The notes under the pieces: generated by a model
Seen by the model: only the letters and a program-made list of their open reading frames with translations
What the model was told of the DNA's origin: nothing
Databases searched by the model: none
Assembly: GCA_036172245.1 (NCBI GenBank)
Contig: JAYWIR010000009.1
Span: 4,340,001 to 4,404,000, forward strand
Origin: Raillietiella orientalis
Taxonomy: Eukaryota
Length of the DNA stretch: 64,000 nt
Reading direction: 5' to 3'
Shown here: positions 30,665 through 64,000 of the stretch, in pieces
Numbering within the stretch: position 1 is the first letter of the stretch
How the letters are laid out: each line of letters begins with the position of its first letter
Translations under genes and position numbers: made by a program

Positions 30665-31290
30665 TTACGCTTCCTCGGTTGGATTTCTTGTTTCAGGCAA
30701 CGGAAGCAGTAATTGGATCGTACGCACAAAAAAGTTGCCCAAAAGCATCAGCTCCTTTGAAACAGAAAACTCTGGCACGAATCCTGCTCTCCATGTCATT
30801 TTCAAAGTTAACGGCCACGGTAGTACAGATGAAAGAAAGGGTTCTTCCCTATCTTCCACTTTTCCTTTCTGGTTCCTGAATTTGTGCTACGAGGGATGTT
30901 ACAGTAAGTTTCACTCCGGGGGAAATCCTGCAGGCTGTATTTCGGCGCTTCTTCCTCTCCGTCCAGGGGCCTGCTCCTCTTCATGATGCTGTCACAGATT
31001 TTGGGTATAGTCCGATAATCTTCCAAGCCGATGTGTCCAATACATGTCGGGAGCGTGGTGAATGCATGCCATAAACTGCCTCATATATCTGAACGCATCC
31101 CGGTTCAAGCACTGCTTCATTGGTAGGATCTCAAGTTCCCAAAGGTCCAAGGATGATGGCCAGCAACTTGGCGTCGACTTACTCGGACTGCTGGTAGGCA
31201 GTCTCTTATTTGAACACTTTCTCACTCCTGGTGATACTGAAGGCTTCTTTCCCATTATCCAAGGGGAAGCATCACCATCTGTTGTCCTTC
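30665..31290 (-). mobile_element. Decayed BEL/Pao LTR retrotransposon integrase/C-terminal fragment
   Basis: Fragments LNRDAFRYMRQFMACIHHAPDMYW (like the F..ALRRF.ARRG.P..I.SDN integrase motif) and LPWPL...NFFVRTIQLLLPL (like the DUF5641 WPL...RPIQ.L.PL motif), with frameshifts. Confidence 0.55.
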
Positions 31291-31299
31291 TGTGATACT

Positions 31300-32300
31300 T
31301 GATCTAGTCTCAGAGCTGAATCACGACCAGGAACGTTCTGATTCGTCGATACCAGTTTCCATCTTCCTGTTTCTATTGCTGCTATCTAAAACTTGTCTAA
31401 AATGGCATCGTGTCGCACCGTGTATAGACGAGTGCCTCATGCAATGATTTGTTATGTGAGGCAACACCGCGTCGTCACACAGGCTAGAACGACGATATGA
31501 ACGATCAGATTCTCAAATTATGGTTGTTCCTCTAATGGGAAGCAGATTAAGCGTTGTAGCGTGGATGGATCTGTAGTCCTCAAATGTCAAGTAGTCACCA
31601 TTAGTGTAAAAATAGCTCGAATAACTATGCAGTTCAATGCAGTGCATGGCTTTCACTAGATCCAGATTCTTCTTCACCTGGGATTGCCATGCTTTTTCCG
31701 GTTGCCCAGCTCTTACAAAGGAGGAAAGTTTTCTCTTGATGCAGATACCAAGAATCATCTCACTGATTCGAATTATTTGTCCCAAACTGCTCCTGATCTT
31801 AACGTAGCTTGTCCTTAATGGTTTAATGCATGAACAGGCCTCGTTACATAGGATTCCAGTTGAATATTTGCGATGTTGTCAAACGATAAGTGTTCAACGA
31901 TTTCAGGGTAAGTGAACCCAACTTCAACTTATGCTAGTGTTTTTGGCCTTATGGTATGCGAGATGGTGCTAAAAGCTTTGGTAAGACCAACGAAAACCAT
32001 TCCAATGTTCCCATATCGTCGAGGTAAGGTATCCAATTGCGTTTGGAGGACAAAGTGTCCTTCAAGAACTCCATCGAAGATAGAAATCCCTTCTGCTAGG
32101 GACAGACCATCTTGCTTCTCAAAATCCATTCCTGCAACCTTGTCGTTAGGGGTTTTGTGTGAAGCTTATAGATGCAACTGCCGATGGAAATCGGTCTCCA
32201 ATTGCCAATCTCTTCTATCGAGGCAGAAGCTTTCGGGATCGAAATTGCCGGGTGGACTTTCACTCTTCCGGAACTCGGTCGAATTTCAATCAACTGAACA
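31300..32300 (-). mobile_element. Decayed non-LTR retrotransposon fragment, RLE-type (R2/NeSL-like)
   Basis: IPKASASIEEIGNWRPISIGSCIYKL (RT domain 1), AEGISIF...MVFVGLTKAFSTISH (D..KAFD.V.H), then GDYLTFEDYRSIHATTLNLLPIRG and a degenerate CCHC knuckle (LPHITNHC). Much of the RT core is deleted. Confidence 0.8.
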
Positions 32301-33669
32301 GTATTGTTAGAATGGTAGCTTTTGCAGAGTAACTTTTTTGGGTACTCCAGTTGGAGTATGTAATACGGTCTGATCCGGGAAAACATATCAAATGCTAACA
32401 CGGTACTCACATGAAGAGGTAACAATAGAGACAAGGTGACCAGCATGAAAACGCAACGAAGAATCCTCAGGGCTTTTTAAGTGCACCAACACAGTATACT
32501 GTGGAAATAAAGGAACGAGAGGTGCCATGGAAGTTTGCAAATGATTTTCGTATCTCCAGATACATCAGGTGGAATGGCTTCTCGGCCTTTTGGCAAACAT
32601 AAAGTATAATTTATTCGATTTTAATTCGGTAATGGCGCTTGTTCGATGATGGCAGAAGTTTGGTATTTGCCTTCAGAGTTGTATGAATTTTAGTATGACC
32701 TTTTGAGTGGTTCTTGGTTGAATTTTCCTTTGAGTGTACGCTCTTGTGTTTGCCAAGTCGATTTGGCGAATACATTTGTAGATGATTAAGGAGCAGTAAT
32801 TCGTAAACAAAGTGACTTGTGGATTCAGTTAAAAGTTTTATACAAAGGATGCCTTTCGAATAGCAGTATCCACCTTTGATAATTAAAGACATGGATAAAA
32901 TATTTGCAATAATTACGGCTTCCATGACATGAGACTAAAAGCAGCCGTTTCTGAAGCGACTGTGCATTCTGCTTCTTGAATTTCAAACGCTGTGTAGTCG
33001 AAAATGCTTTGGACCCCCAAATTCCTGCATTACAAGATATAATCGATCAGTTAAATTGATTGGATCAAAATGGAAATTGTGTTCTTTAGAGTATTGTGTT
33101 GACAGCTGAGAAACCGAAGCACCAAATTTTAGTGGGAAAGATTTGAAATATTTTTCGATCATGTTTCCCATAATTCCGTAATTCATGCGAAAGCCCTTTT
33201 TTGAAAAAAAAATACCTGTAGTGCAATTCATTAGTTTTATTCCCTCATTCGGTGTCAAGTATCGAAATTCCATGATTTACTGTTATAACAGAAATTTTCC
33301 TGATTGATTTCTTACAGCCAACTGGGTATTGAAGCGTCTTTCGTTCTTGAGAGATCCTCCAATGCTCAGATATGTGTTAAAAAACTTTTTATTGATTTTA
33401 TTGACGGATGCTCATGCATTTTCTAATGATCATTGGTTGTGTGGCAACTGGTGCGAACTCTTATTTTCATTATTCAGTTTTCTTTAGTAAATGTTCTTGA
33501 GTGAATGAAGATCATATGTGATGGAATTTGTTTCTATACCATGCAGTTTAATGGTGATGACCGACGCATTTCGTTTGTTAACCATTGTTCGTCTTTCAGA
33601 AATAGCATACAGCATATGAACATTGTCACTCCAAAAAGTACCCATTAATACGTTTTCAGACTCTGATGA

Positions 33670-33919
33670 ATGCCTAAGGATCCCTGTAAGATTTATGCAT
33701 GTAACTTACAGAAATGCTTACAAAGTAATCATCATCATCAGAGTGTTAAGAAATTAAAAACTAAATTTGTTTTTAGGGCATCATTTCCAGGAAAATAAGT
33801 GCCTTAAAAGCATTCTTGATTTGAAAAATTGCTGCATGAGATCATTTTACTTGTCTGATACATGCTCAGGCATGTATTCATATAATATTCCTAAAACAGA
33901 GTTTAAAAATAATGAGTGA
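33670..33919 (+). CDS. CMC4: Cx9C motif-containing protein 4 (p8-MTCP1), 65 aa, 2 exons, absent from the ORF track; cistron 1
   Basis: Exons 33670-33724 and 33777-33919 (52-nt GT-AG intron) give MPKDPCKIYACNLQKCLQRHHFQENKCLKSILDLKNCCMRSFYLSDTCSGMYSYNIPKTEFKNNE*. This matches the CMC4 pattern KDPC...AC..QKCLQ.....E.KC......L..CC.......CSG. Confidence 0.88.
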
Positions 33920-34247
33920 TTATAACCCTCCCACACTTCCCTCCCTTCCATCACAAAAATCTCTTGTAGAATTCAAAAAGGGACGTTATTTTTATGATAT
34001 AAAAAAAGAAAGATCTTTGTTTGTTCGTCACCCAAGGCGATGGATGATAGGCCTTTATCTTGCTTCAGCATTGTGTTTTTTATCAGTACCAATCTGTAAT
34101 TACCTTTTTGGCCCATTTCCAAAGATTTTTCATATAAAAGAAGATCGAGAGAAAATTATGCTTCAGCACAAAAAAATTTGTGAAAAAAATCGTGAAATCC
34201 AATTTTTGTCTCAACTTAATGCTGATGGAATCAGTAAAAAGTGCTAG
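33912..34247 (+). CDS. 111-aa predicted single-pass membrane protein of unknown function; cistron 2
   Basis: Intact ATG-TAG ORF that exactly fills the gap between CMC4 and NDUFAF8 and overlaps both. It has one hydrophobic segment, WMIGLYLASALCFLSVPICNYLF, preceded by basic residues. Confidence 0.62.
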   Translation: MSDYNPPTLPSLPSQKSLVEFKKGRYFYDIKKERSLFVRHPRRWMIGLYLASALCFLSVPICNYLFGPFPKIFHIKEDREKIMLQHKKICEKNREIQFLSQLNADGISKKC

Positions 34248-34425
34248 AACGCGGCTGCATTGGTTTTCCAAAGCATTTAGTTCTTGCCACAAAGAGGCTT
34301 CATTATATGGAAAATGTGTTTTGATAAATGACACCAACACAAAAAAAGATGAATGCTTGAAAGAGTTCTTGCTATTAAAGCAATGTTTTCAGAAATCATT
34401 TCTGCAATCCGGATATCGCCCTTAA
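34225..34425 (+). CDS. NDUFAF8: Complex I assembly factor 8-like twin-Cx9C protein, 66 aa; cistron 3
   Basis: MESVKSARTRLHWFSKAFSSCHKEASLYGKCVLINDTNTKKDECLKEFLLLKQCFQK has two Cx9C motifs and the NDUFAF8 pattern V...R.RL..F......C..EA..YG.CV......KD.C.KEF..L..CF. Confidence 0.85.
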   Translation: MESVKSARTRLHWFSKAFSSCHKEASLYGKCVLINDTNTKKDECLKEFLLLKQCFQKSFLQSGYRP

Positions 34426-35612
34426 TGCATAAAGCAACTGATTCTCATTTTCAAATTATAAAGTATTGTATTTATGCTTACATTTTACGAATCTTGTTAA
34501 TCTTATATTCAATGTTTCATGATGCATACTTTGTGCCAAAGTACACTGATATTGATTATGAAGTGTTTCAAGATGCTGCATCTTATATGTATCACAATCA
34601 TTCTCCATATTTGCGTTCTGCATACAGGTACAGCCCATTAGTTGCTTTTCTTTTACTTCCAAATATATGGATGTGTTCTTGTTGGGGAAAGTTAGTATTT
34701 AGTTTCATGGATGTTATGACAGGATACATGATTTATTTGATTCAGCATCAGAAAGGATTTCCAAGTCATCAAGCACTCTCGAGTGCTTTATGTTGGTTAT
34801 TTAATCCTCTTCCAGCAGTTCTGTGTAGTCGTGGTAGCATGGATTCAATAATTTCCTTCTTAATTTTATATAGCATGTATCAGCTATTTAGGCAACCTCT
34901 AATTTCTGGGTTTGTATTTGGTATTGCTATTCATTTCAGACTGTATCCAGTGATTCTTATGTTTGCTTACTTCAATGCATTAAATGAAAAAAGGTTATAT
35001 TGCTTTCCTTATGTGAATCATCAACAGATCTGTTTTTGTATTAGTACAGCCCTGACAGTCATGATGCTTTTCATTTCATGTTATGCTGCATTTGAGGCAC
35101 CTTACGTTGAGGAATCTATTGTTTATCATCTCCATCGTAAAGATATACGCCATAACTTTTCTGTGTTTTTTTATATGTTATATTTAGATTCATGTAATGA
35201 GAAGGCTTTGCTGAATATGTTACTTTTTGTTCCGCAGAGCATAATTATTTTCTTTCTTAGTATGAAATTTGGGTCATTCAAGCACTTAAGCTTGGCATCA
35301 TTTATGATTGTAGCTACATTTGTGAGCTTTAACAAAGTGGTAACTTCGCAGTATTTTCTTTGGTATTTTAGCCTGCTACCTCTAATTATTCCATATTTAA
35401 ACATTCAGTATCTAGGAGGATGCATGTTAATGCTGGTATGGTTTCTTGCACAGGGTTTATGGCTTCTTGCAGCATATTTATTAGAATTTCATGGTATCAA
35501 TACATTTACCCTTATATGGATTTGTTGTTTGCTGTTTTTCATTACAAATGTCACCATACTTGTTATAATATTAAAATTGTATAAGAATGACCCTACAAAA
35601 GTGAAAGAATAA
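34425..35612 (+). CDS. PIGM: GPI mannosyltransferase 1, intronless, 395 aa from ATG 34425; cistron 4
   Basis: KYTDIDYEVFQDAA, SPYLRSAYRYSPL, WLFNPL, SRGSMDS, AIHFRLYPVI, YHLHRKDIRHNFSVFFYMLYL and FNKVVTSQYFLWY, with many TM segments and a C-terminal KxKE ER-retrieval-like tail. Confidence 0.96.
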   Translation: MHKATDSHFQIIKYCIYAYILRILLILYSMFHDAYFVPKYTDIDYEVFQDAASYMYHNHSPYLRSAYRYSPLVAFLLLPNIWMCSCWGKLVFSFMDVMTGYMIYLIQHQKGFPSHQALSSALCWLFNPLPAVLCSRGSMDSIISFLILYSMYQLFRQPLISGFVFGIAIHFRLYPVILMFAYFNALNEKRLYCFPYVNHQQICFCISTALTVMMLFISCYAAFEAPYVEESIVYHLHRKDIRHNFSVFFYMLYLDSCNEKALLNMLLFVPQSIIIFFLSMKFGSFKHLSLASFMIVATFVSFNKVVTSQYFLWYFSLLPLIIPYLNIQYLGGCMLMLVWFLAQGLWLLAAYLLEFHGINTFTLIWICCLLFFITNVTILVIILKLYKNDPTKVKE

Positions 35613-35687
35613 AACTATCTATGAAAGTTTTATTTTAGTATTTATCAAAAGCTAAAAAACTTTTGCCTTTATGCCTTTAATTTATTA

Positions 35688-37261
35688 TTAGTATTTCTCT
35701 TCTCGGAGTCCATGCTTAAGGAACATCATTACAGGAACATGTTTTCCATCAACTTCACGGTACTCCAATATTGCCAGCATACCATCAATGTCCATGGATT
35801 CTCCTAAAGTAGTTATGGTGTACACAATGCAAATTTACATTTTTAATTTCAAGTAATAGGAAAATAAACTGAACTAATTATAGCATATAATTAGTTCCCT
35901 AATTACATAAAGTAAATTACTCAGTAGTAACTTTTAAAATAATACAACTTAAGTCAAATAAATACAAACATATGCTTTTGTTACATTTCCAATGAAGCAG
36001 ATCATCAGTAACTGCCCAAAATGAATCAATTAACTAATCTCTGTGCATTTTCTTTTCACTAATTCAAACTTAACTTCTTGTTTAGATTGCATAAATTTAA
36101 AAGTACCATATGAATACAACCTTGAGCTCAGTGTTCAAGAATGTACTCATTTATTAATGTTTAGTTCTAAGCTGCACCACATGCTTGGTTTTACTTGAAT
36201 ACCTGTAAAAAATTGCAATTCCTTGAATTTCCCTACCAACTCCTTTGCTACTTTATTAACACTATTCTTGAATTTGTCAACTTCTTCAGGTTGCTCCTTT
36301 TGCAAAATTTCCAAAATCCTAAACGTATTAATCATAACACAAAACAATATAAAAATAACGAACTTGTTTGTGTACTCTTTCAAGTACTGGGTGAACGATT
36401 TTTTATCTGGAAATGCGAAGTTTTCTTGAAGTCGCTGATTCAAAACAATATCAACTCCAGACTCAACTACTTCATCAGTGTCGTTGCTGACTTCTTCAGC
36501 AGATGGATTCGCGCCTTCTAGACGAATATCTCCATGTTTTCTATTAATATACTGCACAGATCATTAAATAGTAGTAATTCATTGATACTTCAATTATACT
36601 TTTCCATAGACTTCATATAATACACCATCAACCAACTTCATTTTATATGAATCGGTGAACATTTCATCTCCTTAAAACAAAGATACAGACTTAACAATGT
36701 AAAAAAAAAAAAAAAAACATTAATAAATCAACATTCATAATTAAACTTTTTCAAAAAAATGCAAGCTACATTACGGTGAACCAATAAATTTGGTGCGAGG
36801 TACCGACACTACATAATTTTTCTAAAGAAAAATTTTTATATCTCACTGTGCAGATATTGTTTTTATTCGGAAAGTAATTAAATCTCTGAATATGGAATTT
36901 TCATTACCCTCCAAATTTTCTTGACTTTCTTGAAATTCGACATTTGCTTTTTTTTGCTCGCAAGAAAAAATTCGAAATTATTATCAATGCCATTTAACAG
37001 AATCATATTATAATGAAAAAATTTCAGCATGAAATCAAATGTCAGACAACTTATTTAAAATACGTTGCCATTACTAGTTGGATGATTTCCGTACGTTTGT
37101 TCTGATTCATCACTTACTACGTAAACGGATCTGCACGGTTGCACAACGTAAAACATGACCTCATTTTAAACAAAAACTTAAACGTTTTCGTGCCGTGCAA
37201 AAGATGCTCATGAGAGTATCAACGTATTCTTACCAGTAAAAATATCTTTATAAATCTTCAT
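35688..37261 (-). CDS. TPT1: Translationally controlled tumour protein (TCTP), 5 exons
   Basis: Exons 37261-37234, 36670-36600, 36551-36364, 36318-36203 and 35803-35688 give MKIYKDIFTGDEMFTDSY...GANPSAEE...ESGVDIVLNQRLQE...LQFFTGESMDIDGM...MMFLKHGLREEKY*. Confidence 0.97.
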
Positions 37262-50180: not shown

Positions 50181-52787
50181 ATGCGCTTTGGGACGGATAA
50201 AGAAATCACAACCTTTAAGGATATTGATGACATTTTGAAGGAATGCAATATAGTGAGTGTCAAGATGCTTGTGTTACTTTATTGGTCTGTAACGTATTCA
50301 TGTTTGCTTCATCAGTTGTTGTCTAGATCATTCCAGCAATAGCAGCGAACAAGGGGAAATTTGGGTAATGGTTGAGGCCTTTGTTAATCATGTGTTTTTG
50401 TTTAATTGTTTTATCGTTGTTATTCACCCACCTTTCATGTAGGTCACTTATAAAGATGTTACGAGAAGATGTAAGAAAAGCATCATTTCAGCCACGAGGT
50501 TTGTAGATTGAAGCTTATCAGATACTGTAAGGTGATTGTGTTTATTAACTATACTCATTTATAGAAAAACGAGTAAAATTTAAAGGATTTTCAATAGCGC
50601 CGAACGTATGTGTATGTTGTTTGCAAACTAAAGCAATGAATTTTGGAAGTTTAGTACTTCCAAAATTTAGGCAAAATTTAAGGGCTAATCTAAAGTTTAG
50701 TACTTTAGATTTAATAATTTAACATATTAGACTGTAATGTATCTTTGGCAGAAATAACATTTTTACAACTAAGCATTGTTTCCCTGTTTGAAGGGGGGAT
50801 ATAATGGAGGTATTCAGTATATTCTACTTTATTTTTTTTTTCCGAAACAAAGTTCAAGACTAAATGAAAGGAAGCAATTTTTTTTCCAGGCTCCTAAAGG
50901 ATTATGTAAATCAGAATAAGGAAATATCAGTTACTTACTTTTTATTAGCAGTTGATGATGCTCAAACATACCACATTGTATTGGTACCTGCAAGCAGAGT
51001 GGAAGAAGCAAAAAGAACGTGGAATGTTATCCAACAACATATATTTTGTATCAGTAACCAGCCTATCAATGATACATCTGTCCTTTATACAAGTGAATAT
51101 ACAAAATGGAAGAATATGGATTTTCCCCAAATGTATGCTTGAAATTCTATTGGAAATGTTTGAGTTTGTTTTGCTGCAATAGTCTTCGTGATCAAGCAAT
51201 GGAAGAGAAAAAAGAAGGCAGTAGTTCCAGTGGGAGATCTTCCAAAAATCCAGAAGTTCAAGCATCACCTTTAGAATTAGACAATGTGGATGCTCCTAAA
51301 GTGGATCATCATCAAACATTGAGTAAAGATGTAATTCCAAATCCAAATAAGTCCAAGATTGGGAAATGCAGCAAATGTGTAGTAAGTGTTTCCACTTTTA
51401 TATTAGAAACCATGTTTGCGTGTCTCTTTCATTATGCTTTCATTAAAGTTTTGATTGAATGCCAACTAAATTCCGTACTTGCTTATTAAGAATCAATTCA
51501 CAGAATGCAAGCAATTCCAAACAAAGTAAGTTTTCCAATTAGTGGGTTTCAATTTGCTTTATGGAATCTTTCATTACAACCAAGTACTGGACATTGTACT
51601 TATTGAAAATATGCTATACAGCAGTGCTTTAGCAGAAAACCTTAGATTATTTACCCTACCTTGCAAACATACGCTGAATGTAAAGCTATACCTTGAAGGG
51701 TGTTTGTGGAATTAGCTACACTGTGTATTTACATAGAACAGTGTATCAAGTAATGCAAATCCTAAAAGAAGTGCACATTTCCTATAATTTATTTAGAAAC
51801 ATCATTTGAAACTTTACCTAACCAGTGGAAAAACTTTCATTGGTAATCTTATTGTTTTGATTAAGGTTTCCTACAAAAGTGCCAAAAATTAAACATACTT
51901 TTATGTTGTATTCAGTATTCAGTACATTCATTCATACTTGTATTCAGTTTGCCAAAAAGTGTTGGAAACCATTTTTTTACTGGTTGCAAATTCAGAGAGA
52001 AAACCTTAGATAAGTTTCAATACAGTTACCACATTATCATTTTTAATGATGTGTACACTTATAAGATTTGTAATGAGTGCATCTTCAATACATGAACATG
52101 AAGTCATTCCTTTTTTTTTTTCTTCAAGGGCAAAAGTAATTCTCAAAATAGTGAAAAGAGCAAATTGAACATTAATATATTTGCTAGAAGTTCTCCGCAA
52201 ATTTGCACAAGTGTATCATCATTGCACAAAGTTCATGAGGATAAACCTCCTATGTCTCAAGAGCAAACAAGAAATGATGGTAATCTTCCTTCAACTGACA
52301 AGCCTGAAAATGAGAAAGTTGGCAAAGACACTGTAGTTATTCATGATTCTGATACAGATGTTTCTGATAGTTCTTTAAACAAGACAGGTATTTATTTATA
52401 TTTTTTCTGTCATATATGCTATTATATTTTAATCTCAATTAAGGTAAGGGGTCCCCCAGAAGTAATTTAGAAGACAGTTTGTCTGTGAAGAAGTTAAAAG
52501 CCAAAAAGAGAATGCTTGTGGAGAATACTTATGAAGACAATGAGGGTTTTTTGGGTAATGCAATCTTAAAAAAGAAAGATCATTTGATTTTCTCCTCATC
52601 AGTGACCAAAAAGAAACTACAAAGTTGCAGTGCATCAGATGATAGTGATCAAGAGTTTACCATTTCAGATGAGATGAAGAATCATAAGGAAAAACAGGCA
52701 TCAAAAGCCAATACCAGAAAAGTTCAGAAATTGTGTAGTCGTGTAAAGCAGGTTTCTATTGCAAGTTTTTTTAAAAAAAAATCATAA
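50181..52787 (+). CDS. POLD3: DNA polymerase delta subunit 3 (p66/Cdc27), spliced
   Basis: DIDDILKECNI|VTYKDVT...|LLKDYV..ISVTYFL...HIVLV...HIFCI N-terminal domain, then a low-complexity middle, ENTYEDNEGFL|VTKK and a C-terminal PIP box KQVSIASFFKKKS*. Confidence 0.9.
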
Positions 52788-55700
52788 ATACGCAGTCTGT
52801 GATAAATTCTTGTATATAACTGGTACATTGGCATTGCCGTAACCCCTGGTACTCAAAAGATTGGTTTGTATTCTTTGCAGATAAACATCACTTTATTAGC
52901 GATAGATCCTCAAAATTCAGTAAGCTGCTCGCAATCTTTTCAATTTTATTCTAAATTACCAAGAAATTCGGGTTGGATATGCACCAGTCATATTCAGTAC
53001 ACATCTCCGAGCCAATTCCTCATACAACTACGAATTAACAGGCCGTAATCATTTCTGTGCCTCGTAACAACATAAACGTAATATTACAAAATTGGTCTCT
53101 ACTAGATGGATTAATTCGTAATGAATCTGACGAATATCAGGAAATGAAATTTCCGGCAAACTTCACATTCACCGATTCCCACAGCAAACTGCCGATTGCT
53201 AAATGGCATTCAGTAAACGAATCCACATTCAAATGGAAGTAAGGGCGATGTATTGAACACTCCCCTATACACTAATTTTCTGCTGTAAAATTCCTCCGGT
53301 AAACACAATCATCCGCGACATCCGTCGCGGAAAGGAGCTTAGGCCGCCGCCAACCTACTTCCATAATAATAATTCTATGTAACGAGTAACTGTGTAACTC
53401 ACATGTCGTGAGTTGTCGAAGGAGCTCCACGCGCGTACCTGCGCTACCTTTTCTGTACATTCTCATAATTTGTATATCCTCCCGCAAACAATATGAAACC
53501 CATTCTCAACCGTCCAACCCACAAGATAGCGATCGCACTCTCACGGCTGCCAGTAGCATTCCAGCACCTATTCGTTCACAAAAACAAATAGTATGCCAAC
53601 GACTGAAGGTTTGCGACAAGCCGAATCAGCTTATCAGAACACAATTTCAAGAATTTACACTCTAGTAACGTAAGGAAGTTCGCCAACAACACTGCAAATA
53701 CTGCACTATCATCATCACACTTCGTAAGCTTCCCTTTTGGGGAACTCTCACAAAGAAGACTCCGTGATGCATAAGGAAAGAAACAAATGCCTTGCATCAC
53801 ACATCTTATATCTAATCAAGCTCGAATCATGCAGGATTATGAGATCAAAAAAAGCATCATTTCGTCCAAAAAGCCAACTTCATAGAGGAAACAAACTGGG
53901 TGAATAATAAAGTTATAGATGGTTTGGGTTTGTATCCCTACAAACAAAATTTGAAATACTTTAAATGGTAGCTGAGCTCTTATGGGCTTTTGGCCATGTC
54001 CAATGCTAACAAATCTGGCATAAGATCAACAGTCCAAATTACTGAATCTTGGAGTCTTAATGCATATTCACTCAACTGACGTGACACATTATCTGTTTAT
54101 CGGAATGCGATCCAGATTGGTTGATTCATCATATGTGAGAAGCTTCTGCCCAAGAAATGGAAATTGCAAATTATTTGAACAGTGCTAATACCACATTAAT
54201 TTCCCGTGGTGCATACTTTAAAGATTGAAGGTTTAGAAATTTATCATTAGCAGCATGAAGGACCTAATTTCTGTTGTCAATGTTGGATGCTCTGAAACAT
54301 GATCTGAGTGGTAGACCATCTGATCGCAGCATTCAATTTACAGAGTTGAAAAGGAATGTAAAGTGAGCTAGAGATTCAGCTGCTTTTCTCAGCCCATTGT
54401 GCGGCTACAGACACCAATTGTTGTTTACTGGATCTGCAACAGAAGTGTACTCCCAAGACTTGCAGTAAACTGAGCTGAATTGGATCCATGGGAGACTGCT
54501 CATTCTGAACATCACGTCACATTGCAGTAGATGATTAGACATACACCACTCATAAGAAACTCAGGGCTGAAATGCTTTCAATTACCTATTTCGCGAAAAA
54601 AAAAGCATTTCCAGCATCAGGGGAGATCAGATAGTGAATCATTTCAGCTACCATTAAGTTGCAGTGTTGTCTTGCAAGTAGACTATTGCTAAAAGTCTTG
54701 ATCCTCTCTTGGCGATTTCCTATTTCTCCCTATCGATGTGCAATCCAACCGAACTGTCAGGTTTCCTTTTAAGCCTCAATTGCCGTTCTGCAGCTCCCAA
54801 GTAAAGGAATAATCCCTCACTTTAGAATGTTTTAGCACATACCAAACGAATGTCTATTACGTTTGAATTTCGCAACTCTGCATTAGCGAGCACTCGAGAA
54901 ACCGAAGATACGGGTTCCTGCTCCAAAAAAGTTTGCCAAGGCGTGCTCTCATGACTTCGAAGATACTGATAAGTATGAGGCAGTTATGTGGCTCACATCG
55001 TGCAACACCGACGAGGCGTCAGGCGCTGGAAGGGTTGGATTTTCGAGAGCTACCACAACAAGCATAGGAGTTACAGGACGATGAACAAGAGCAGCTTGTT
55101 AAAGGGGAAGGAGAAGAAGGTGAGAGATCAGATGCAATGCACTGGAAAGAAACCAGTACGCGAACCAATGGTAAACAGCTCTCGGTGACCTTGCTTAATA
55201 TTTAGAGAGAGCAGATCGAATTCATCTTAAGAAAAACAGCTTAAGAAAGATTAAAGAATGGATATGAAGAGCTGAAAAAAAATTCTATCAAGGGATCAAT
55301 AACGCAAGGAGGAAGGGTGAAGGACTGAATCCTATTCAGTTTATCAACTCTGGTCTCTATAATAATCATAATGCGCAGTTTATTAAAACAGAGATCAGCT
55401 CAGCAACTACTTATCCCAGGTTTCCCTTCAGTTGTCCCCCAGGTGAGGTGATAGCAATCTCCTAATAGCTTACCATCCCGTTTGGAACGAACTCCTCTCC
55501 ATTTGACAATTGCTTGCTTACTGAGCTTGTACTTGTTTGTTTCCTTGTCCCAATCTTTCCTCCTCTGCAGTCGCGTGTGGCTGGTGATGATCCCAAATCC
55601 AACTCTGCGTGTCAGCCAGTGATGCATTTTCTTTCACTGCGATCTGCCTGAACATTTACGTGCACACTTATGTGCTTTGAAGAAGTGCTGTCTGTTGCAT

Positions 55701-57004
55701 TTCATCTTCAAGTCTCGCTCTTAGATTGATCATTTGAGTGTCATCATCTGAATGTCAGTAAAGAGTGATTTGTCGTGCTATTTGCGGTATTGGAAAAGGT
55801 GGAGCAAATCTCAGAAGAAATGGGGCTTCATGAGTGAAAACCCAGGTGTTGTGGTTTTCGTCTGTACATGATTATTCGATTACTCATTTTAAAAACAGAT
55901 ATGGATTGAAAGACTGGAAATCGTTATTTCATTATTGTTTTCCAGTATTCATAACAAATGACATTACTATTGTTGTTCTGATGGAAATTTAATCTGATAT
56001 TCACAGTAATAAGTACCACATGAATCCATTACTGAGTTATATATGTTAGTGGATTTTAATCCAAAGTTTATGTGGGACCCCTGACATTAATGCAATAGCA
56101 ATTGTGGCTGGAACGTAGCAAGAATAATTCCTTTTAAAAATACATATTGTATACTCTAATGGAGTAGTTATCTCGAAAATTTGCTTCATAAAGCGTATCT
56201 TAATTAAGCGAATTCGGATGAAATAAGTAACAAGATTATTTGGATCGTCTGCTGAAGGGAGAAAAAAAAAAATTGTGTAAGGATAGAAAATTCACATCAC
56301 CTGCACGAAAGACTGTCTGGACCGGCAAGTGTCCGATGCAGAGCATGCAAAGAAGATTATTTTATAAGATTTATTCGTTATGCATGGAATACTGTACGTG
56401 ATTGCATTCTTCCACGAGTACGAGCAGAATGCATGCTGGCAGCAGAAAGACTTTTCGAGTGCACTCTTCTGATTCACTCTGCCCACGGGAGTTCTGCAAT
56501 GGTGATTGATCTGATTCTGATCTCATGTCTCTTGAGGATGGACCTGAGGGCATCCGAAAGCGCACGGTATTGGCACTTTAAAGTTCAGTGTCCCTAAGGT
56601 AATGAATAGCGTAGGTCACATAGAACAAGCGTCGATCCGAAGAGGGTTTGCTAAAGAATCTGCCGACGTCTCGCTCGGGACAACCCGATCGAGAGTGACG
56701 CCAAAAGGCAAAACGCAGCAGGGAGTCGACGTTCAACAGGAGCATCGGTGAATTTTCTTTTCTGTGACATCCGGGAAGCGAAGCCTCCCGTCGAGCGCGG
56801 CTCCCAAACTTCACCCTCCAGCATTCTGAAGAGAGCACACACACAGCACCGCCGCCAGACGAGGCAAAGGTTCCAATGCAGTAGACGGGGAGTCACGGAA
56901 CAACGAAGGGACACCCACGAGATCCCCAAAAGTTCACGCAGGCGAACACGGTCACGGCAAGAGGGGTTCGCCATCGCACCTGATCCCAAACCTTCCCTCT
57001 CCAG

Positions 57005-58500
57005 TTGTCCACCCGGATTCATTAGAAAAAGTAATAAAAATACCTTTTTGTGGTGGAACACGCAGTTCTACCACGCATATGGAAAATGCACCGATTGTCG
57101 GTACAGACCGGCGAAGAGGAAGAAGGGAGGACCGAAAACAAAAATGAGCAAACCGAAAAAGGGAGGGAAAGTTTTTTAAGGAGAAGAGGGGACACGGATC
57201 GGGGTAGGCATCACGGTTCTCTGTCAGGCGTCCACTGCATCCTATCCAGATTAGGACTCCAGGCAAGTTAGTTTGTTCCGGATGCTGCCCAAGTGGACCA
57301 TCTCGTCGCGGTCCTCAGAAGGAGTTGCTTCCAGGGAAAGACGTCCATGTTGTCCCCTTCTTGCAGAGTTCCAAGCCGCCACCATCCCGCGAAGACAGCA
57401 GAGAACTGAGAAGGACGCGGATGGCGACAGTGCGGTACGAACGAAGAGGAGTTTGAAGGAGTTCCTGGGCCGCCCACAGGGATTCCAAGAATCGTCTCGA
57501 AATGCTTTCGAAGGAATCGGAGGGCACGACAGTCTAGGGGCAGGTGAGGATGGGTCTCCCTCACCACGCCTCCACCCTCCCCAGGTCCAATGGTGTAGGT
57601 GCGCTAATCATGGGGAATCCCCCATGCAAGACCAGCAATGACAACTTTTGACACCTGAGAAGGAGGGTGCACTTGTCCTGCAACACTGGGGGTCACATGA
57701 AGGATTATCGAGGAACCTCCAGCAGTTCGCCCAAGCGGAGAAGTCCTTCGGGTGGGACACTCAGGGTCGCAGCGTCCGTCGGATGCCGTGCTCTCCCAGA
57801 AGTTTCTTTCTTCCTGCAATGCAGCAGGACACCTCCTACTATGCAGGATGGACGCTGTCCGTTGCTCCCCTTGGAAGGGCAGCGCTGGGTCAAGAAAAGG
57901 GGGGGGAGGCTAACGAAGCCCACAGACGAGCGTATCTGCCGCGCACCACACAAGAAAACTCCGCCCTCGCTGGTGCCGTGGGTCCTCCCTACGCGTCAAC
58001 TGAATTTAGAAATTCAGCTCGCGGGGATGCAGATCTATGAGTCCTCTCTTACCAAGGCAACCTGTTTGACGAAGTCGGCAGCCGCAGAAGGCCAGACTAG
58101 GTCGGTTGGCGGCAAGGACCGAAGTCTTTCTGTTGCAGACGGCTGCTCATTGGCGAGAGAGAGGTGTGCTGGCGCGCAAGGCAGCGTCCACAACTTCACC
58201 ACAAGGGCGAGACGGGTTGCCCATTCCAGGTTTGGTGACCCTCCTCGAGTTTCCATAACGTATGCAAGCGCTCCGAGACTTCCTGGCCAACGCAGCAGCC
58301 TTCACAATCGCGCATTACCTCACGCGGAGGGGCTGTGCAGCGGACGGGAAGTGCCTTCCATCCGCAACGGCTTTCAAATCAACACGGAAGGCATCCTGCA
58401 AAATCTACCCAGCGGTTTCTGAAAGCCGCCACACCCTTTGCCGCAGCACCCTCTGCCCTCAGGGCACAAGATGACAGTAGCCTACCAGCAAGGAGGAGAG
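57005..58500 (-). mobile_element. LINE (L1/Tx1-like) 3' fragment, copy A, strongly decayed
   Basis: Colinear similarity to copy B (cgtccactgcatcctatccag vs tgtcctctgcatcctttccag; acgaagagg; ccatctcgtcgcggtcctca) and a degenerate version of the same terminal motif at 57005-57024. Confidence 0.65.
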
Positions 58501-58619
58501 TTCTGTAAAATTGCAGGAGTCGATAAACTCCTCGAAGGCAGCAGACGAGTGAGTTGGTGAACGCCGCCTCCACTCGTTCCCGGAAGAAGGGACTCCTTCG
58601 GTGGAGCGACTTGCTTGGT

Positions 58620-61490
58620 TTATCACCCGGTCACGCCGGCACGTTTATTATAAAAAATAAACATACATGTGTAGGGCCATCGGCTGTACATTGTCCGAAA
58701 ATGCTCGCAACCTGCCGAGTAACCGGCACGCAAACCGGCGACGGTCGCCTCTTCTGCGGAGGGGGAGGGGACAAACAAAAAATAAGCAAAAAAAGTGTAT
58801 ACAACAATTGGGTGCAGGAGGGTGAGCGAGGGTGTCCTCTGCATCCTTTCCAGGATGCCGACAAGTTCCATCCGAGTATGCCCCAGGCGAGGCCATCTAG
58901 CCGCCGTCCTCATGAAGGGCTGGGCGAAGCAGGTGGCGTCCCGATGGCACCATCCTCCTCCCCTGGCGCAGCTCCAGGTCGCTACATTCCCGCATAAGCA
59001 GCAAAGAGCTGCTGGGGATGCGGCAGGCGGAAGGGCATCGCGCACGAAGAGGCGCTTCGTCATGTCCCTGGGATTGTCTGTCAGTGCACCAAGGGCCGTT
59101 GTGTAAGGCAAGAAAAGGGGCCATAGGGCAACACAGTCTGCTAAGAGGTGCGGGAGGGATTTCCCTTTCCCTACGCATGCAACAGTCCAGTGGGAGCGAG
59201 GGAGGTCTACAGTCCCCCGGGGCGAGTGGGAGCGGCGGAAGGTGCAAGGAACATCCCAGTGCAGCACCACTTCGGGGGGAGGACCCGCTTCAGCGCTGGA
59301 GGCCACTCGAGGCCTTCCTGTGGGATTCTCAGCGGTACACCCCAATGCAATAGTCCTTTCGGCCAAGCACTTGAGGTCGCAGAGTCCGTGAGCTCGCCCG
59401 TGTCCAGCCACCTAATTCTTTCGCCCTTTCTCCGATCTCACATCGGACCCCCCCCTTTGGTCGGATGGTTACTGCCCAGGTTCTCCCTGAGGGAGGGCAG
59501 TGCGGCGGCTAGGAAGGTTCTTTGCGTCCACGCACACGTGGTGGGCTGCAAGATGATGTCCTGCAGCGAGCAGTTGTTTCAGAAAAAGTGCAGCAGTCGC
59601 TGCCGCATCTCCGTGCTCGCTTCGTGGTTCCTGGCTCACGTGCGAACGGACACTTCCGTTCGCGGACCCGCAGAACATCCATCCGTGGCCAGCGTGGCCA
59701 CCCGCCGGAGGTGCAGCCCGCAGCTGGACACGTTGCGTCTGCTCCGCTCCGCCAGGAAAGAAGATGGTCCGGCGAAGCCGGTGGCTCGCTTGACCAGGTA
59801 TGGTGCGGACTCGCACGAGTTCGTGCTCCACATCTTCGTTGCTAGGGCAAGCGTCCTCCACTGGAGCTGCCGCTCCAGGTGTTCCAGCGTCAGAAGACCG
59901 AGGCCTCCGTAGCGACGCGGAGCGCACAAGTCCTCCAGGCCTTCCTGTGCCCCACAGGGCGATTCTGAGGAGGTCCTTCGCCCGCCTTTTGATGCTACAC
60001 GGTGGTGGGCGAACTAAAAGAAGGGGGCAGTAGAGGGGGGTCACAAACGCGTTTCACACCGCGGCTTGTTTCAGCAAGAGAAACTTTCCATTCCGGAACG
60101 GGCCGACCGCCAACTCTGCCTTCTGGAGGCAGCCAGACGAGGCCACCGTCTGAGAAAATTCCCCCAACAGTATACCAAGGTGCTTAAGGTACCGAACCGT
60201 GGGGATCTCCAAGGGAATCCAGTCCAGCTGCAGCAGGACAGCCTCGTCTGCGTAAGCAAGGCAGTCCAGTTGCCCTGCCTACGCCGAACCGACTGTTACC
60301 ATGGTCGATTTCGTCCTGATCACCTCCACTCCTGTCCTGCAGCTGCAGTTTAACAGCTGGAAGAAATCTGAGAGCAGTGACGCTGGGGTGGACATGGGGA
60401 GAAGGTGCAGAAGATCGTCCACATATGCTGACACGGCCGGTGTGCCTGGGCACGCGCGTGGCAGGCGAGCCAGAGTCTTCCTGTACTCCCTCAGCACCAA
60501 CTCGAAGTAGGTGCCGAAGAGCAAGGAGCTCAGACTGTCCCGCCCTGCCGTAACCCGCGACGCATCGGCACACCGTGCGCGTTTCGTCCACTCAAAGAAA
60601 TAGTGATCAGCGCGTCGCGCCTGCAAAGAGCGAAGAAAAACCGCCAAAGAGACCGGGAAGCCTAAGCGTTCCAGAAGCTCCAGAAGAAGTTGCTCCTGGT
60701 CGACGCAGTCGAATGCTTTCTGCAAGTCGACTGCGGCCGCAAGGGTACCTTCTCCTTCCCGCCCATCCCGCCCACCACCGGCGGACGTCCCGGAAATCGG
60801 GGTGCCAATCGTGTTCCCTCCGTTCGCTCTACTCCGCTGGAACTCCAACCATGTGTTCGAGAAGAGTAGGTGGTTGGCGTCCATGCACTCCCCGGGAACA
60901 GAGGAAGTCTGCTCCGGGCTAATGAATCTTTCCGTCACCCGCCCTCATCGCTCCGAGCAAAGTTTCGCCAGCAACTTGGCGTCCGCGCTCAACACGGTGA
61001 TCGAACGCCAGTTGCAGAGGCTCCGTTTAAGTCCCCTCCCTGAGGGTGGAGACGCATCCGTACCGATCGAAGAGAGGCGGGAACCGCCTGTCTCCCAAAT
61101 CAGCAGCGTTAAGCGCTGCCGAGAGAAGTTTGAGCTATCTTGGCTCTCAACTTGGCCGAATAGTTTCGCCTTACTACGGCGAAATCCCTGGGATCTCCGT
61201 CCTCCCAGAGAACTCGCCTACTTGGCTGCAGGAGTCCGTATTTTTGCCTGGGGTAAAATCAACGGCGCGAGCGAGGGGGCAGAGTGCATCTGCCTACGAA
61301 ACAGCAGATGCACTCGTCAGTCGTTGAGGAAGATCCTGGGTAACACCAGGAATCTGCTTTGGGCGTCGTTCATCCTCCTCGCCCCAATGCTGTCCTCCCT
61401 AAGGGGAACCTTCCGGCAAGGCGGAACATCACGAGCACTATCGAAAATAGAAGAAAACATCCGGGTGCGTGGACAACTCGGGAACTGAGA
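58620..61490 (-). mobile_element. LINE (L1/Tx1-like) 5'-truncated, frameshifted ORF2 (RT + CCHC), copy B
   Basis: NWRSITVLSADAKLLAK, ISPEQTSSVPG, AVDLQKAFDCVDQ..L...LERLGFP, DSLSSLLF, VSAYVDDL, CAPRRYGGLGL and KSLPHLLADC, then a T-rich 3'UTR with AATAAA at 58649-58644. Confidence 0.9.
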
Positions 61491-62207
61491 TGCTGCCACC
61501 CCGAGTGTCCCTCTAAAAGGACTGCTACGCTGAGGAGAGCCACTAGAAATTCCTCCGCAGAAGATACAGTGGCCTCCAGCGTGCTGGAACAGTGTAACGC
61601 TCCTGCCCCCTGAAGTGGCAGGAGTCGGCGATCCTTCTGGCAATGGGGTCTCCCGTGCAACGCCCGCCGGCATCACTGTACCCTGGGGAGGAAGTGAGCC
61701 CGAACTGCAGAAGGTGCTGCGAAAGAGAGTCCCTTCCGCACCTGCTCGTGGATTGCGTTGCCTTCCGCCCCGTGGGAACGCTTTGCTGCGTCCCTGTGGA
61801 TCCCCAAGGACAACCTCACAGAGTTCTGAAGCGCCTCTTCCTGCGTGACGCCATCACGCCGACCGCATCCCCAGTGGCACTTTGCTGCCTACGCGGTGGG
61901 ATCGTGACTGCATGAAGCAATGCCAGAGAAGGTCGGGACGACAGGGACTCCATCTCTTGTGCCTATCTCCTATTCGTGAGGATAGCGTCAAGATGGCCCC
62001 ATCTGAGGGTCGTAAAACGGGAACTTGCCGGCATCCTGCATAGGATGCAGAGGACGCCCTCCAGCACCTGGTGATCCCTTCCTGAACCTCCCCATTTTGT
62101 TTCGTGTATATTTTTTTTGTTGTTGTTTCATTTTTCTTTTCGTTCTGCCACTGACCTGTATGTTTATTTTTTATATAAGTGAACGCCCCGGCTCAACCCG
62201 GTGTCAA
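61490..62207 (+). mobile_element. LINE (L1/Tx1-like) 3' fragment, copy C, inverted relative to B
   Basis: NCRRCCERESLPHLLVDC...LKRLFLRDAITPTASPVALCCL...ELAGILHRMQRTPS is homologous to the copy B C-terminus. It shares TGTATGTTTATTTTTTATA and the terminal motif with B. Confidence 0.85.
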
Positions 62208-63252
62208 CCCAGTGACCAGAGCGGTGGCTGCAGAAGTGGGAATCAAGGCGGGAGACACCGAGGTCCGCGGCCGACAACCCAGGACGCTCTCCCGCTTCGG
62301 GGTCGCGAGGCGGCTGCGATGCCAGAAGGAAAAGCGGCGTATCAGGCGACAGCAGCATCCACCCGGTTGATGAGTGGGTGAGGGGGGAGCAGCGAAATTT
62401 TCTGGCGAAAAGAATGAACGGAACGGCGGGAACGTGCTAGGGGCAGGCGGACGGGAGCGCGGGGCTTTCCTGCACGGCGGCAGGAGGGGGAAGTTTTCTA
62501 ATTGGGGTTTGCTCAAACGGTAGCGTTTCTTCCTCCGGATCCACAGAGAACAGAGACTTTTCCGCTTTCCACGAGTCCGTCTGGCTAGAAAGGAGAGGGG
62601 GTCTTGGAGATCGGGAAGAAACAGTGGTCAAAGCAAAAGGAGGAGGGGTGCTTTTTAGACTCCATTGGATCCCCTCCCCATCCGGAGCACAGAGGCCCGC
62701 GAACAGAACCTCCGTAGCGGAGCGCTGCCGTTTCCAGAACGCTAAGTGTTGAGCTGGGCGTGGGTTCCGGAGGAAGAGGCCGCGCAGCTTCCGTGGAACC
62801 GGTGAGCGCGCGCCGGCCGGGAAAGGGAGAGGGATCGAAAAAGGGGGAGGAAAGCGTCCCGGGACGCGGACCGCGGGAGGTGCGGGGAAGGATCGAGCAG
62901 CGAGCGGGACTTCTCCCCTGCCAGGGAATTTCGCGATCCCCCCCAGCTCGACAGACCGAGCGCGCGGATGGGTGGGGGATCCCAGGGAGGCGACGAAAGC
63001 CCCGCGAAGGAAACTTGGACTCTCGACCGCTGATTCCTAGCTGGCGTTCCCGGAGAGAATTCGGGACTTCAGGATCGAATGACAACTCCTGGGAATACAA
63101 AAATGCATCTATTCTTATTCTTATTATTCTTATTGTTATGTTGGGGAGTAATAAATACAACATGACTAGAAAGTTTGCGGATGTGGAAGTGTTCTAAATA
63201 AATGCCATAAATAAATGCCCCGGCATACCCGGTTGTTAAGCCGGAGGTGTTC

Positions 63253-63488
63253 TCACAGCTGCATCAGCACGAGCAGCATGGCTGCCAAGTTTACGCTGCA
63301 CGGAGCCTTGAACGGCGCCGAGTTGCCACCGTGTGGATCCACCATATGTCGGGAATCAGGCGTCCAGCTGCTGCACTTCGGGAACTCGTAAGGGACTGGA
63401 GGCATCTGCTCCCTCCCTCCCACTTGAAAGATGACTGCCATCCCGATCTCCAGGTGGAAATCGATGTGGCAATGGAGCAGCCAGAAGC
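63253..63488 (-). CDS. Last coding exon of a laccase / multicopper oxidase; upstream exons lie beyond the window
   Basis: After a CTGAC branch-like site and a CCAG acceptor: (G)[41 protein letters not shown]...[12 protein letters not shown]. HCHxxxHxxxGM is the L4 copper-binding signature. The hydrophobic tail resembles a GPI/membrane anchor signal. Confidence 0.92.
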
Positions 63489-64000
63489 CTGGAATTTCCG
63501 ACCGTCAGTTGACGCGCGCGCGATCCGCGACGCGCAGCCTGCGCGAAGCAGCAGCGTCTCCGCTGGCTCTTCTTCTTCCCTGCATCCCCGGGCTGGAGGA
63601 AGGGAGGGAACCGAAACGGGAGCTGGAGTCCCACGGACGAAGCGGCGCCGCGTTCACGAACCCAGGAAGCGCCCCGGGTCGAAAGACCGGATCTCCCGCG
63701 TCTTCCTCGGACGAGCGGGGCGTGGTTCCCACATGGGCTGGGTTGGGCTTTCAGCGAACCCCCCTCCAGCTCCACCTTCTCCTGCACCCTTTCCACGGTC
63801 CGCATGCGGTGTCGTGGTCGTCTTCGTTCGTTCTTCCCCCACGCGGACGAATGGTTTCCCCGGTTCACGTTGGGCTTCAGATGACGCGCTTGGGCCCACT
63901 GACGTTCCTTTAAAAATCATTCGGGATTCTTCCCGCAACACGGGGGGGGGGAGGGGAGGAACAAAAAGGCAACCCGATCTTGCAGCCGATTCCGCAAGGA

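Follow-up and report, generated by a model that had tools for sequence, protein, structure and literature searches.

In Drosophila, the gene CG9865 is preceded by three conserved upstream open reading frames, namely a p8MTCP1-like CX9C ORF, a second ORF and another CX9C ORF, as described by Hayden and Bosco (2008, PMC2276209), and File S1 of Crosby et al. (2015, PMC4528330) has CG42381, CG42379, CG42380 and CG9865 exclusively as polycistronic genes, joined at -1, +8 and +22 nt. A CX9C uORF and a mannosyl transferase on one transcript also make up the 'Group 8' of Hayden and Jorgensen (2007, PMC2075485), reported there from arthropods and as kept for 300-500 My. As for the translation of cellular mRNAs of this general kind, leaky scanning is the tested mechanism of the silkworm uENF1-uENF2-PP tricistron (PMC2978622) and, at second hand, that of Drosophila stoned and Snapin, in which the first ORF must lack in-frame AUGs (cited in PMC2978622 and PMC3372440). 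Coupled termination-reinitiation on overlapping ORFs has been reported for five human transcripts, one of them needing an aspartate-rich tail of its ORF1 (Gould et al. 2014, PMC3923131), and PMC5972666 calls reinitiation very rare after long ORFs. For a CG9865-type locus, we found no paper testing translation, in a literature search that left subscription journals and bioRxiv supplements mostly outside its scope.

The window (the whole stretch of 64,000 nucleotides that was analysed) holds, on one strand and in the arthropod polycistron order with PIG-M last, a chain of CMC4, a small membrane ORF, an NDUFAF8-like twin-CX9C ORF and PIG-M, whose joints measure -8, -23 and -1 nt. Judged by its sequence, this locus corresponds, in another arthropod, to the tetracistron published for Drosophila, in other words a fresh member of something already known; the earlier note had overlooked two of its cistrons and two further overlaps, all upstream. 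The features that the argument needs are these:

33653..33659, + strand: acceptor-like TTTTCAG, 10 nt 5' of the CMC4 start (score 4.2)
33670..33724, + strand: cistron 1, CMC4 (p8MTCP1-like), exon 1 (PF08991, E 1.5e-4)
33725..33776, + strand: predicted CMC4 intron, 52 nt, GT-AG, at the one codon and phase shared with the homologous loci L018, L023 and L025
33777..33919, + strand: CMC4 exon 2 (PF08991, E 0.0015), completing a protein of 65 aa
33912..34247, + strand: cistron 2, a 111-aa ORF recognised by its position and by an R-x-P motif before one hydrophobic stretch
34225..34425, + strand: cistron 3, NDUFAF8-like twin-CX9C ORF, 66 aa, with homologues at the equivalent place
34353..34385, + strand: two extra ATGs in the PIG-M frame (34353 and 34383) within cistron 3, read from the sequence
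34386..34392, + strand: acceptor-like TTTTCAG within cistron 3, 32 nt 5' of the PIG-M ATG, which Cys-Phe-Gln codons explain too
34423..34427, + strand: TAATG stop-start overlap, read from the sequence
34425..35612, + strand: cistron 4, PIG-M (GPI mannosyltransferase I), 395 aa, intronless, single copy
35608..35613, + strand: AATAAA overlapping the PIG-M stop, the only one on this strand between 33001 and 35613

The match to the CG9865 locus, as the fly papers describe it, was made by eye and covers the same order of CMC4-like CX9C ORF, R-x-P membrane ORF, CX9C ORF and mannosyltransferase. The three joints differ from those of the fly, ORF2 has 111 aa here as against 84 aa in Drosophila, with weak similarity, and the animal is a divergent arthropod without a close database relative (best database identities of ~55% for TCTP and ~43% for PIG-M). 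With Group 8 the locus shares the CX9C ORF directly 5' of PIG-M; as described, however, Group 8 covers only that pair, whereas here the first two cistrons were traced too, to ant-like, orthopteran-like, isopod-related and unplaced arthropod loci, and the spacings were measured.

Among the individual cistrons, PIG-M is what the earlier note had taken it for, a full PF05007 protein (E 8.9e-62) and the sole match in this genome. We call cistron 3 NDUFAF8-like, after the name proposed before: its twin-CX9C character stands, with clear homologues at the matching place in 9 other loci, but the name itself comes from no library, the profile match to CX9C/CHCH being weak (E 0.0015, under the cut-off) and the databases offering only CX9C or 'uncharacterized'. 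A twin CX9C with a basic N-terminus, such as this one, fits NDUFAF8 (PMC10174193). It overlaps cistron 2 by 23 nt and has an additional in-frame ATG at 34219, the homologues starting at the residue that matches ATG 34225; in all loci its length is 63-66 aa and its stop lies at the usual place. Cistron 2 would be, from its position, the counterpart of Drosophila CG42379 (uORF2). A leave-one-out profile placed it top among the non-training peptides of 10708, but with an E of 0.68, which is not significant; searches of Pfam, with the window ORF as well as 9 homologues, of NCBIfam and of the complete HMMER library assigned it to no family, and the top scores of two Atlas searches, 0.89 and 0.85, are leads only. 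The sole library match to the cistron 2 group was rejected as a repetitive artefact. CMC4 overlaps the start of cistron 2 with its stop by 8 nt and is preceded by a 3-codon uORF that begins at 33666; the TTTTCAG at 33653-33659 is, on sequence grounds, probably the end of a 5' UTR intron (or of an outron), the GT donors 5' of it being weak ones 69-87 nt upstream. A fusion protein running from CMC4 to PIG-M was rejected, since stops and frame changes are retained in all loci. One public ant gene model (P0252) joins CMC4 and cistron 3 as a single 214-aa protein, which is probably an annotation artefact of the cluster.

Around the locus, a TCTP gene (36147-37260, minus strand) lies ~530 nt from the stop of PIG-M, in tail-to-tail orientation. 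Broken reverse-transcriptase-like frames occupy 30800-32480, and more of them lie in a GC-rich block at 57000-64000; recognised from their translation, they are probable remains of non-LTR retrotransposons. Four genes at 6400-26600 and 50800-52800, which we take to be TAF6-, WDR44-, SREK1- and POLD3-like, have very short introns, mostly of 45-62 nt, with degenerate splice signals.

At the last joint, the letters at 34420-34430 read CCT TAA TG CAT, exactly as the earlier note had it. Namely, the twin-CX9C ORF ends on TAA at 34423-34425, and the last A of this stop opens the PIG-M-frame ATG at 34425-34427, so that TAATG is the third and last overlap of the four-cistron chain. The PIG-M frame is open already from ATG 34353, and the second in-frame ATG, at 34383, stands in a better context (G at -3) than 34425 (T at -3, C at +4). 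Despite this poor context, ATG 34425 appears the likeliest start, because the conserved Arg past the first hydrophobic segment is residue 22 when counted from it, and residue 13-25 in nine relatives. That said, some wasp proteins have longer PIG-M N-termini, and the true start may instead be 34383 or 34353. A start at 34512 was rejected, as it would delete the first conserved hydrophobic segment.

How particular the overlap is to this animal can be seen from the relatives of the cluster. In a metagenome scan, 80 PIG-M loci were fetched of 314 confirmed, and in 9 of the 80 cistrons 2 and 3 lie directly 5' of PIG-M; CMC4 is there too in 8 of the nine, and is absent from the 247 upstream bases of the remaining one (L009). 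Spacers between cistron 3 and PIG-M are -1 (window), +15, +22 (fly), +24, +32, +38, +42, +42, +51, +69 and +94 nt, those between cistrons 2 and 3 are -23, -1, -1, +2, +4, +7, +8, +15, +18, +41 and +100, and those between cistrons 1 and 2 are -8, -8, -1, -1, -1, +1, +3, +15, ~+140 and +231, the values for L016, L018, L023 and L025 depending on introns predicted by eye. Overall 21 of 32 joints are at most 30 nt long, the PIG-M joint being the loosest (4/11), and overlaps of -1 make up 6 of the 32, above chance, with only 1 in 11 at PIG-M. TAATG occurs at the PIG-M joint of this animal only, among the 11 loci compared. In other words, the comparison of junction spacing that the earlier note had called for shows neither the motif nor the spacing to be conserved at this joint, one of the outcomes that by the note's own terms speak against its reading: the PIG-M spacer is 15-94 nt in 9 relatives and 22 nt in the fly (L011, at +32, additionally has an in-frame ATG at -4). 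From the cistron 3 stop to the conserved PIG-M Arg codon there are 62 nt in the window; seven of the 9 relatives have 63-93 nt, and the other two 141-145 nt. The simplest history would be that an AUG arose at the cistron 3 stop and that the old spacer was absorbed into the PIG-M N-terminus.

A single-gene PIG-M tree, built on 37 of 81 loci with distant and partial sequences and 2 interrupted frames left out, places L018 among ants, L023 with an orthopteran (0.98), L062 and L063 with an isopod (0.97) and L011 and L015 beside insects (0.98), with L016 and L025, L009 and the window unplaced. Another arthropod-like clade (L002, L006, L008 and L017) shows no cluster in the 551-2500 nt upstream of PIG-M and has probably lost it. 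The contigs L011, L015 and L062 each carry the four ORFs with CMC4 unbroken, which fits spliced four-cistron mRNAs; they may also be intron-loss lineages or merged assemblies. In the two isopod-related loci, the first two joints are 1-nt stop-start overlaps (L062, at 293 and 553; L063, at 267 and 524), which makes this pair more suitable than the window as a natural test of coupling. CMC4 is distant from ORF2 in L016 (181-400) and L025 (1168-1400), and in L016 an AATAAA follows CMC4 and a strong acceptor immediately precedes ORF2; the first gene looks there as though it were coming loose. A further contig, left uncounted, perhaps opens, as judged by eye, with the final codons of cistron 3, after which comes ~100 nt of AUG-free spacer (L028:1-120).

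On the predicted spliced mRNA, counted from 33660, 21 AUGs lie 5' of PIG-M, 8 of them with a purine at -3, and the other six complete four-cistron models have 11-22. The earlier observation of many upstream ATGs thereby holds, as does the judgement that simple leaky scanning is implausible, all the more as out-of-frame AUGs are not depleted within the upstream cistrons (88 seen, 83 expected under synonymous resampling). They are not depleted in the final 63 nt before the stops either (18 against 19.5 expected), although cistron 3 has 6 there against 9.3 expected. In spacers of at least 6 nt, on the other hand, there is 1 out-of-frame AUG against 9.4 expected (P 0.0009), or against 7.6 when one locus per sister pair is kept (P 0.004); in-frame AUGs were excluded from this test, since the start is by choice the first in-frame ATG. 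For the PIG-M spacer alone the deficit is marginal (1 against 5.1, P 0.04; with sisters dropped, 1 against 3.6, P 0.13). The 3' UTRs of seven loci, taken as a control, show no deficit (48 seen, 38 expected). An AUG-poor zone therefore starts approximately at the stop, the pattern that a ribosome scanning onward from the stop would select for. It is also expected if separate 5' ends lie near the stops.

In mammals, the viral UGGGA motifs pair with UCCCA of helix 26. A TURBS, or termination upstream ribosome-binding site, is described as combining such a UGGGA, which pairs with the helix-26 loop, with a presenting stem and with a stop and start within 20-30 nt (PMC5972666, PMC10275272). The locus does resemble influenza B M1/BM2 and the calicivirus systems in its UAAUG overlap, its poor start context and the many AUGs before the downstream ORF, and the earlier note had suggested scanning for a TURBS-like motif, which we did. 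None of the three window joints has a UGGGA in the preceding 110 nt, a stretch that includes the interval 40-90 nt upstream where motif 1 belongs, and overall the motif is present at 1 of 27 joints. The animal's own 18S rRNA (L082:1641-1712, the helix 26 region, with the hairpin placed by landmarks) has a hairpin loop without UCCCA, so that a canonical TURBS would be unable to pair with its ribosomes. Upstream of the PIG-M start, complementarity to helix 26 reaches no more than 5 nt, a length that 96% of shuffles attain as well, and CGGTT, the equivalent motif for the animal's own rRNA, does not occur on the + strand of the locus; applied to the junctions of other species, this own-rRNA test is a rough guide only. 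The junction region folds no better than its shuffles (z +1.07) and the 10 aligned loci share no pairs in a consensus structure, which gives no sign of the stem (motifs 2/2*) that would present motif 1. The stop-start distance, -1 nt in the window, exceeds 20-30 nt in 7 of 10 homologues and drifts to 94 nt. The scan was negative by sequence, own-rRNA complement and structure alike, and neither the viral analogy nor a special role of UAAUG finds support.

What remains of the coupled reinitiation proposed in the earlier note is reinitiation after the upstream stop, the mechanism that fits best with the AUG-free spacers and the tight junctions. We would explain the locus by a generic relay without TURBS in which, after every stop, the first AUG is taken as the next start, an explanation that we favour while giving it slightly less than an even chance. 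As is in print for Drosophila, one mRNA would carry CMC4, ORF2, the NDUFAF8-like ORF and PIG-M, the gene order being observed. Ribosomes would enter at the cap, read a short cistron (~60-110 codons) and terminate; a fraction would stay bound and start at the first usable AUG, be it at the stop, just before it or up to ~100 nt past it. PIG-M would then be reached by ribosomes fresh from the NDUFAF8-like protein, no rRNA-tethering element would be involved, and TAATG would be a lineage-specific end state of the PIG-M joint. In favour of this relay are the identical gene order in Drosophila, the presence of cistrons 2-4 in 9/80 loci, the mRNA-like intronless contigs, the shortness of most junctions, six of them at -1, the AUG-poor spacers, the similar stop-to-Arg distance in 7 of 9 relatives and, on the + strand from 33001, the lack of any AATAAA before the PIG-M stop. 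There are, in addition, two other ATGA junctions in this genome, both on the minus strand (L084 and L085), in gene pairs that we presume to be TRIAP1-TP53RK and ACOT13-HscB. The human overlapping ORFs reported in PMC3923131 offer a cellular animal precedent, although cistron 3 is without the aspartate-rich tail described for one of them. Against the relay, the PIG-M joint is the loosest and its spacer deficit marginal, the deficit in the cistron 3 tail is not zero, three reinitiations in succession would leave very little PIG-M, and the insect polycistrons with a tested mechanism use leaky scanning.

The best-surviving rival, which we consider unlikely yet worth taking seriously, gives PIG-M an mRNA of its own, by alternative cis-splicing from a 5' exon, by SL trans-splicing to 34392 or by an internal start site. 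If splicing occurred at 34392, ATG 34425 would be the first AUG and TAATG would have no translational role, and the site falls 3' of ATG 34383, exactly where this would require it. Its score is 5.5. Of the 54 AGs within PIG-M's coding sequence a single one reaches that value, and all 19 training acceptors, each left out in turn, fall below it; yet the matrix is crude, its 19 sites being hand-picked (one of them mis-picked) and its true sites hardly separating from decoys. The identical TTTTCAG precedes CMC4, but the motif is not enriched in the window (29 against 24.7), runs of Cys-Phe-Gln yield TGT TTT CAG with an expectation of 0.31, the homologue P0121 shares the residues, and only 3 of 10 aligned loci have, by eye, a YAG at that place. 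Acceptor-like AGs also lie near the TRIAP1-TP53RK and ACOT13-HscB overlap joints, and six of the 9 homologous spacers contain TAGT, against 2.1 expected, a count made post hoc. This TAGT, often as TAGTG or TGTAGT (in L009, L015, L016, L023, L062 and L063), could be a cryptic acceptor or chance. There is no usable local donor, and a local cis-intron ending at 34392 was rejected, as donors at 75-77 nt are only weak and upstream AUGs would remain. An SL operon would show a poly(A) signal and an acceptor between its genes; here all three joints overlap and no internal AATAAA occurs. The nematode SL1 model found no match in this genome, its controls being unable to give a signal, and in the FlyBase list (PMC4528330) the fly genes have no monocistronic isoform.

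Rather improbable, in our judgement, is context-dependent leaky scanning with hopping, in which 40S subunits would slip past weak cistron starts, reinitiate behind short out-of-frame uORFs and in part arrive at PIG-M with cistron 3 untranslated, so that PIG-M could start at 34353 or 34383. The silkworm tricistron, stoned and Snapin set the precedent, being, like this locus, cellular insect polycistronic mRNAs; they are reported to use leaky scanning, whereas the upstream cistrons here keep AUGs in number and the genes joined are housekeeping genes unrelated to one another. Three of the window's four cistron starts have T or C at -3, and internal in-frame Met is rarer in the upstream cistrons (23/2001 codons) than in PIG-M (75/3954), composition being uncontrolled. 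However, the 8 upstream AUGs in good context and the undepleted out-of-frame AUGs within the cistrons speak against it, out-of-frame ORFs run over the next start in the relatives L009 and L018, and leaky scanning does not predict that junctions cluster at stop codons.

IRES-like internal entry, or shunting, near the end of cistron 3 we hold to be very improbable. The FlyBase authors suggest that IRES use may be common, most dicistrons breaking the scanning rules (PMC4528330), and the region is AU-rich and unstructured, but it shows no conserved sequence or structure and three separate entry sites would be required. TURBS reinitiation of the viral type, known from influenza B BM2 and the caliciviruses, to which the pentanucleotide identical to that of M1/BM2 (PMC3035654) and the tolerance of such systems for a poor start context (PMC10275272) would lend some colour, is the least credible of all and is largely refuted by the missing motifs, the chance-level complement and the ~30 nt limit exceeded in 7 of 11 homologous spacers.

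Taken as a whole, the idea of an ancient arthropod four-gene mRNA, older than the split of insects and crustaceans, in which chained reinitiation through three full ORFs without TURBS would link the supply of an ER GPI-anchor enzyme to the translation of two mitochondrial disulfide-relay proteins, is one that we put forward only tentatively, as nearer to one chance in three than to an even one. The locus itself is known. In animals, reinitiation past full-length cellular ORFs is regarded as rare, and the spacer series from -1 to +94 nt, nearly free of AUGs, offers ready-made constructs and a clear, testable prediction. For the reading of animal genomes, a stop-start pentanucleotide need not signal a virus-like element, and for their annotation, three small upstream genes such as these are easily overlooked or fused. 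If the relay is true, the same generic capacity would account for the many further overlaps of stop and start that this genome and flies contain.
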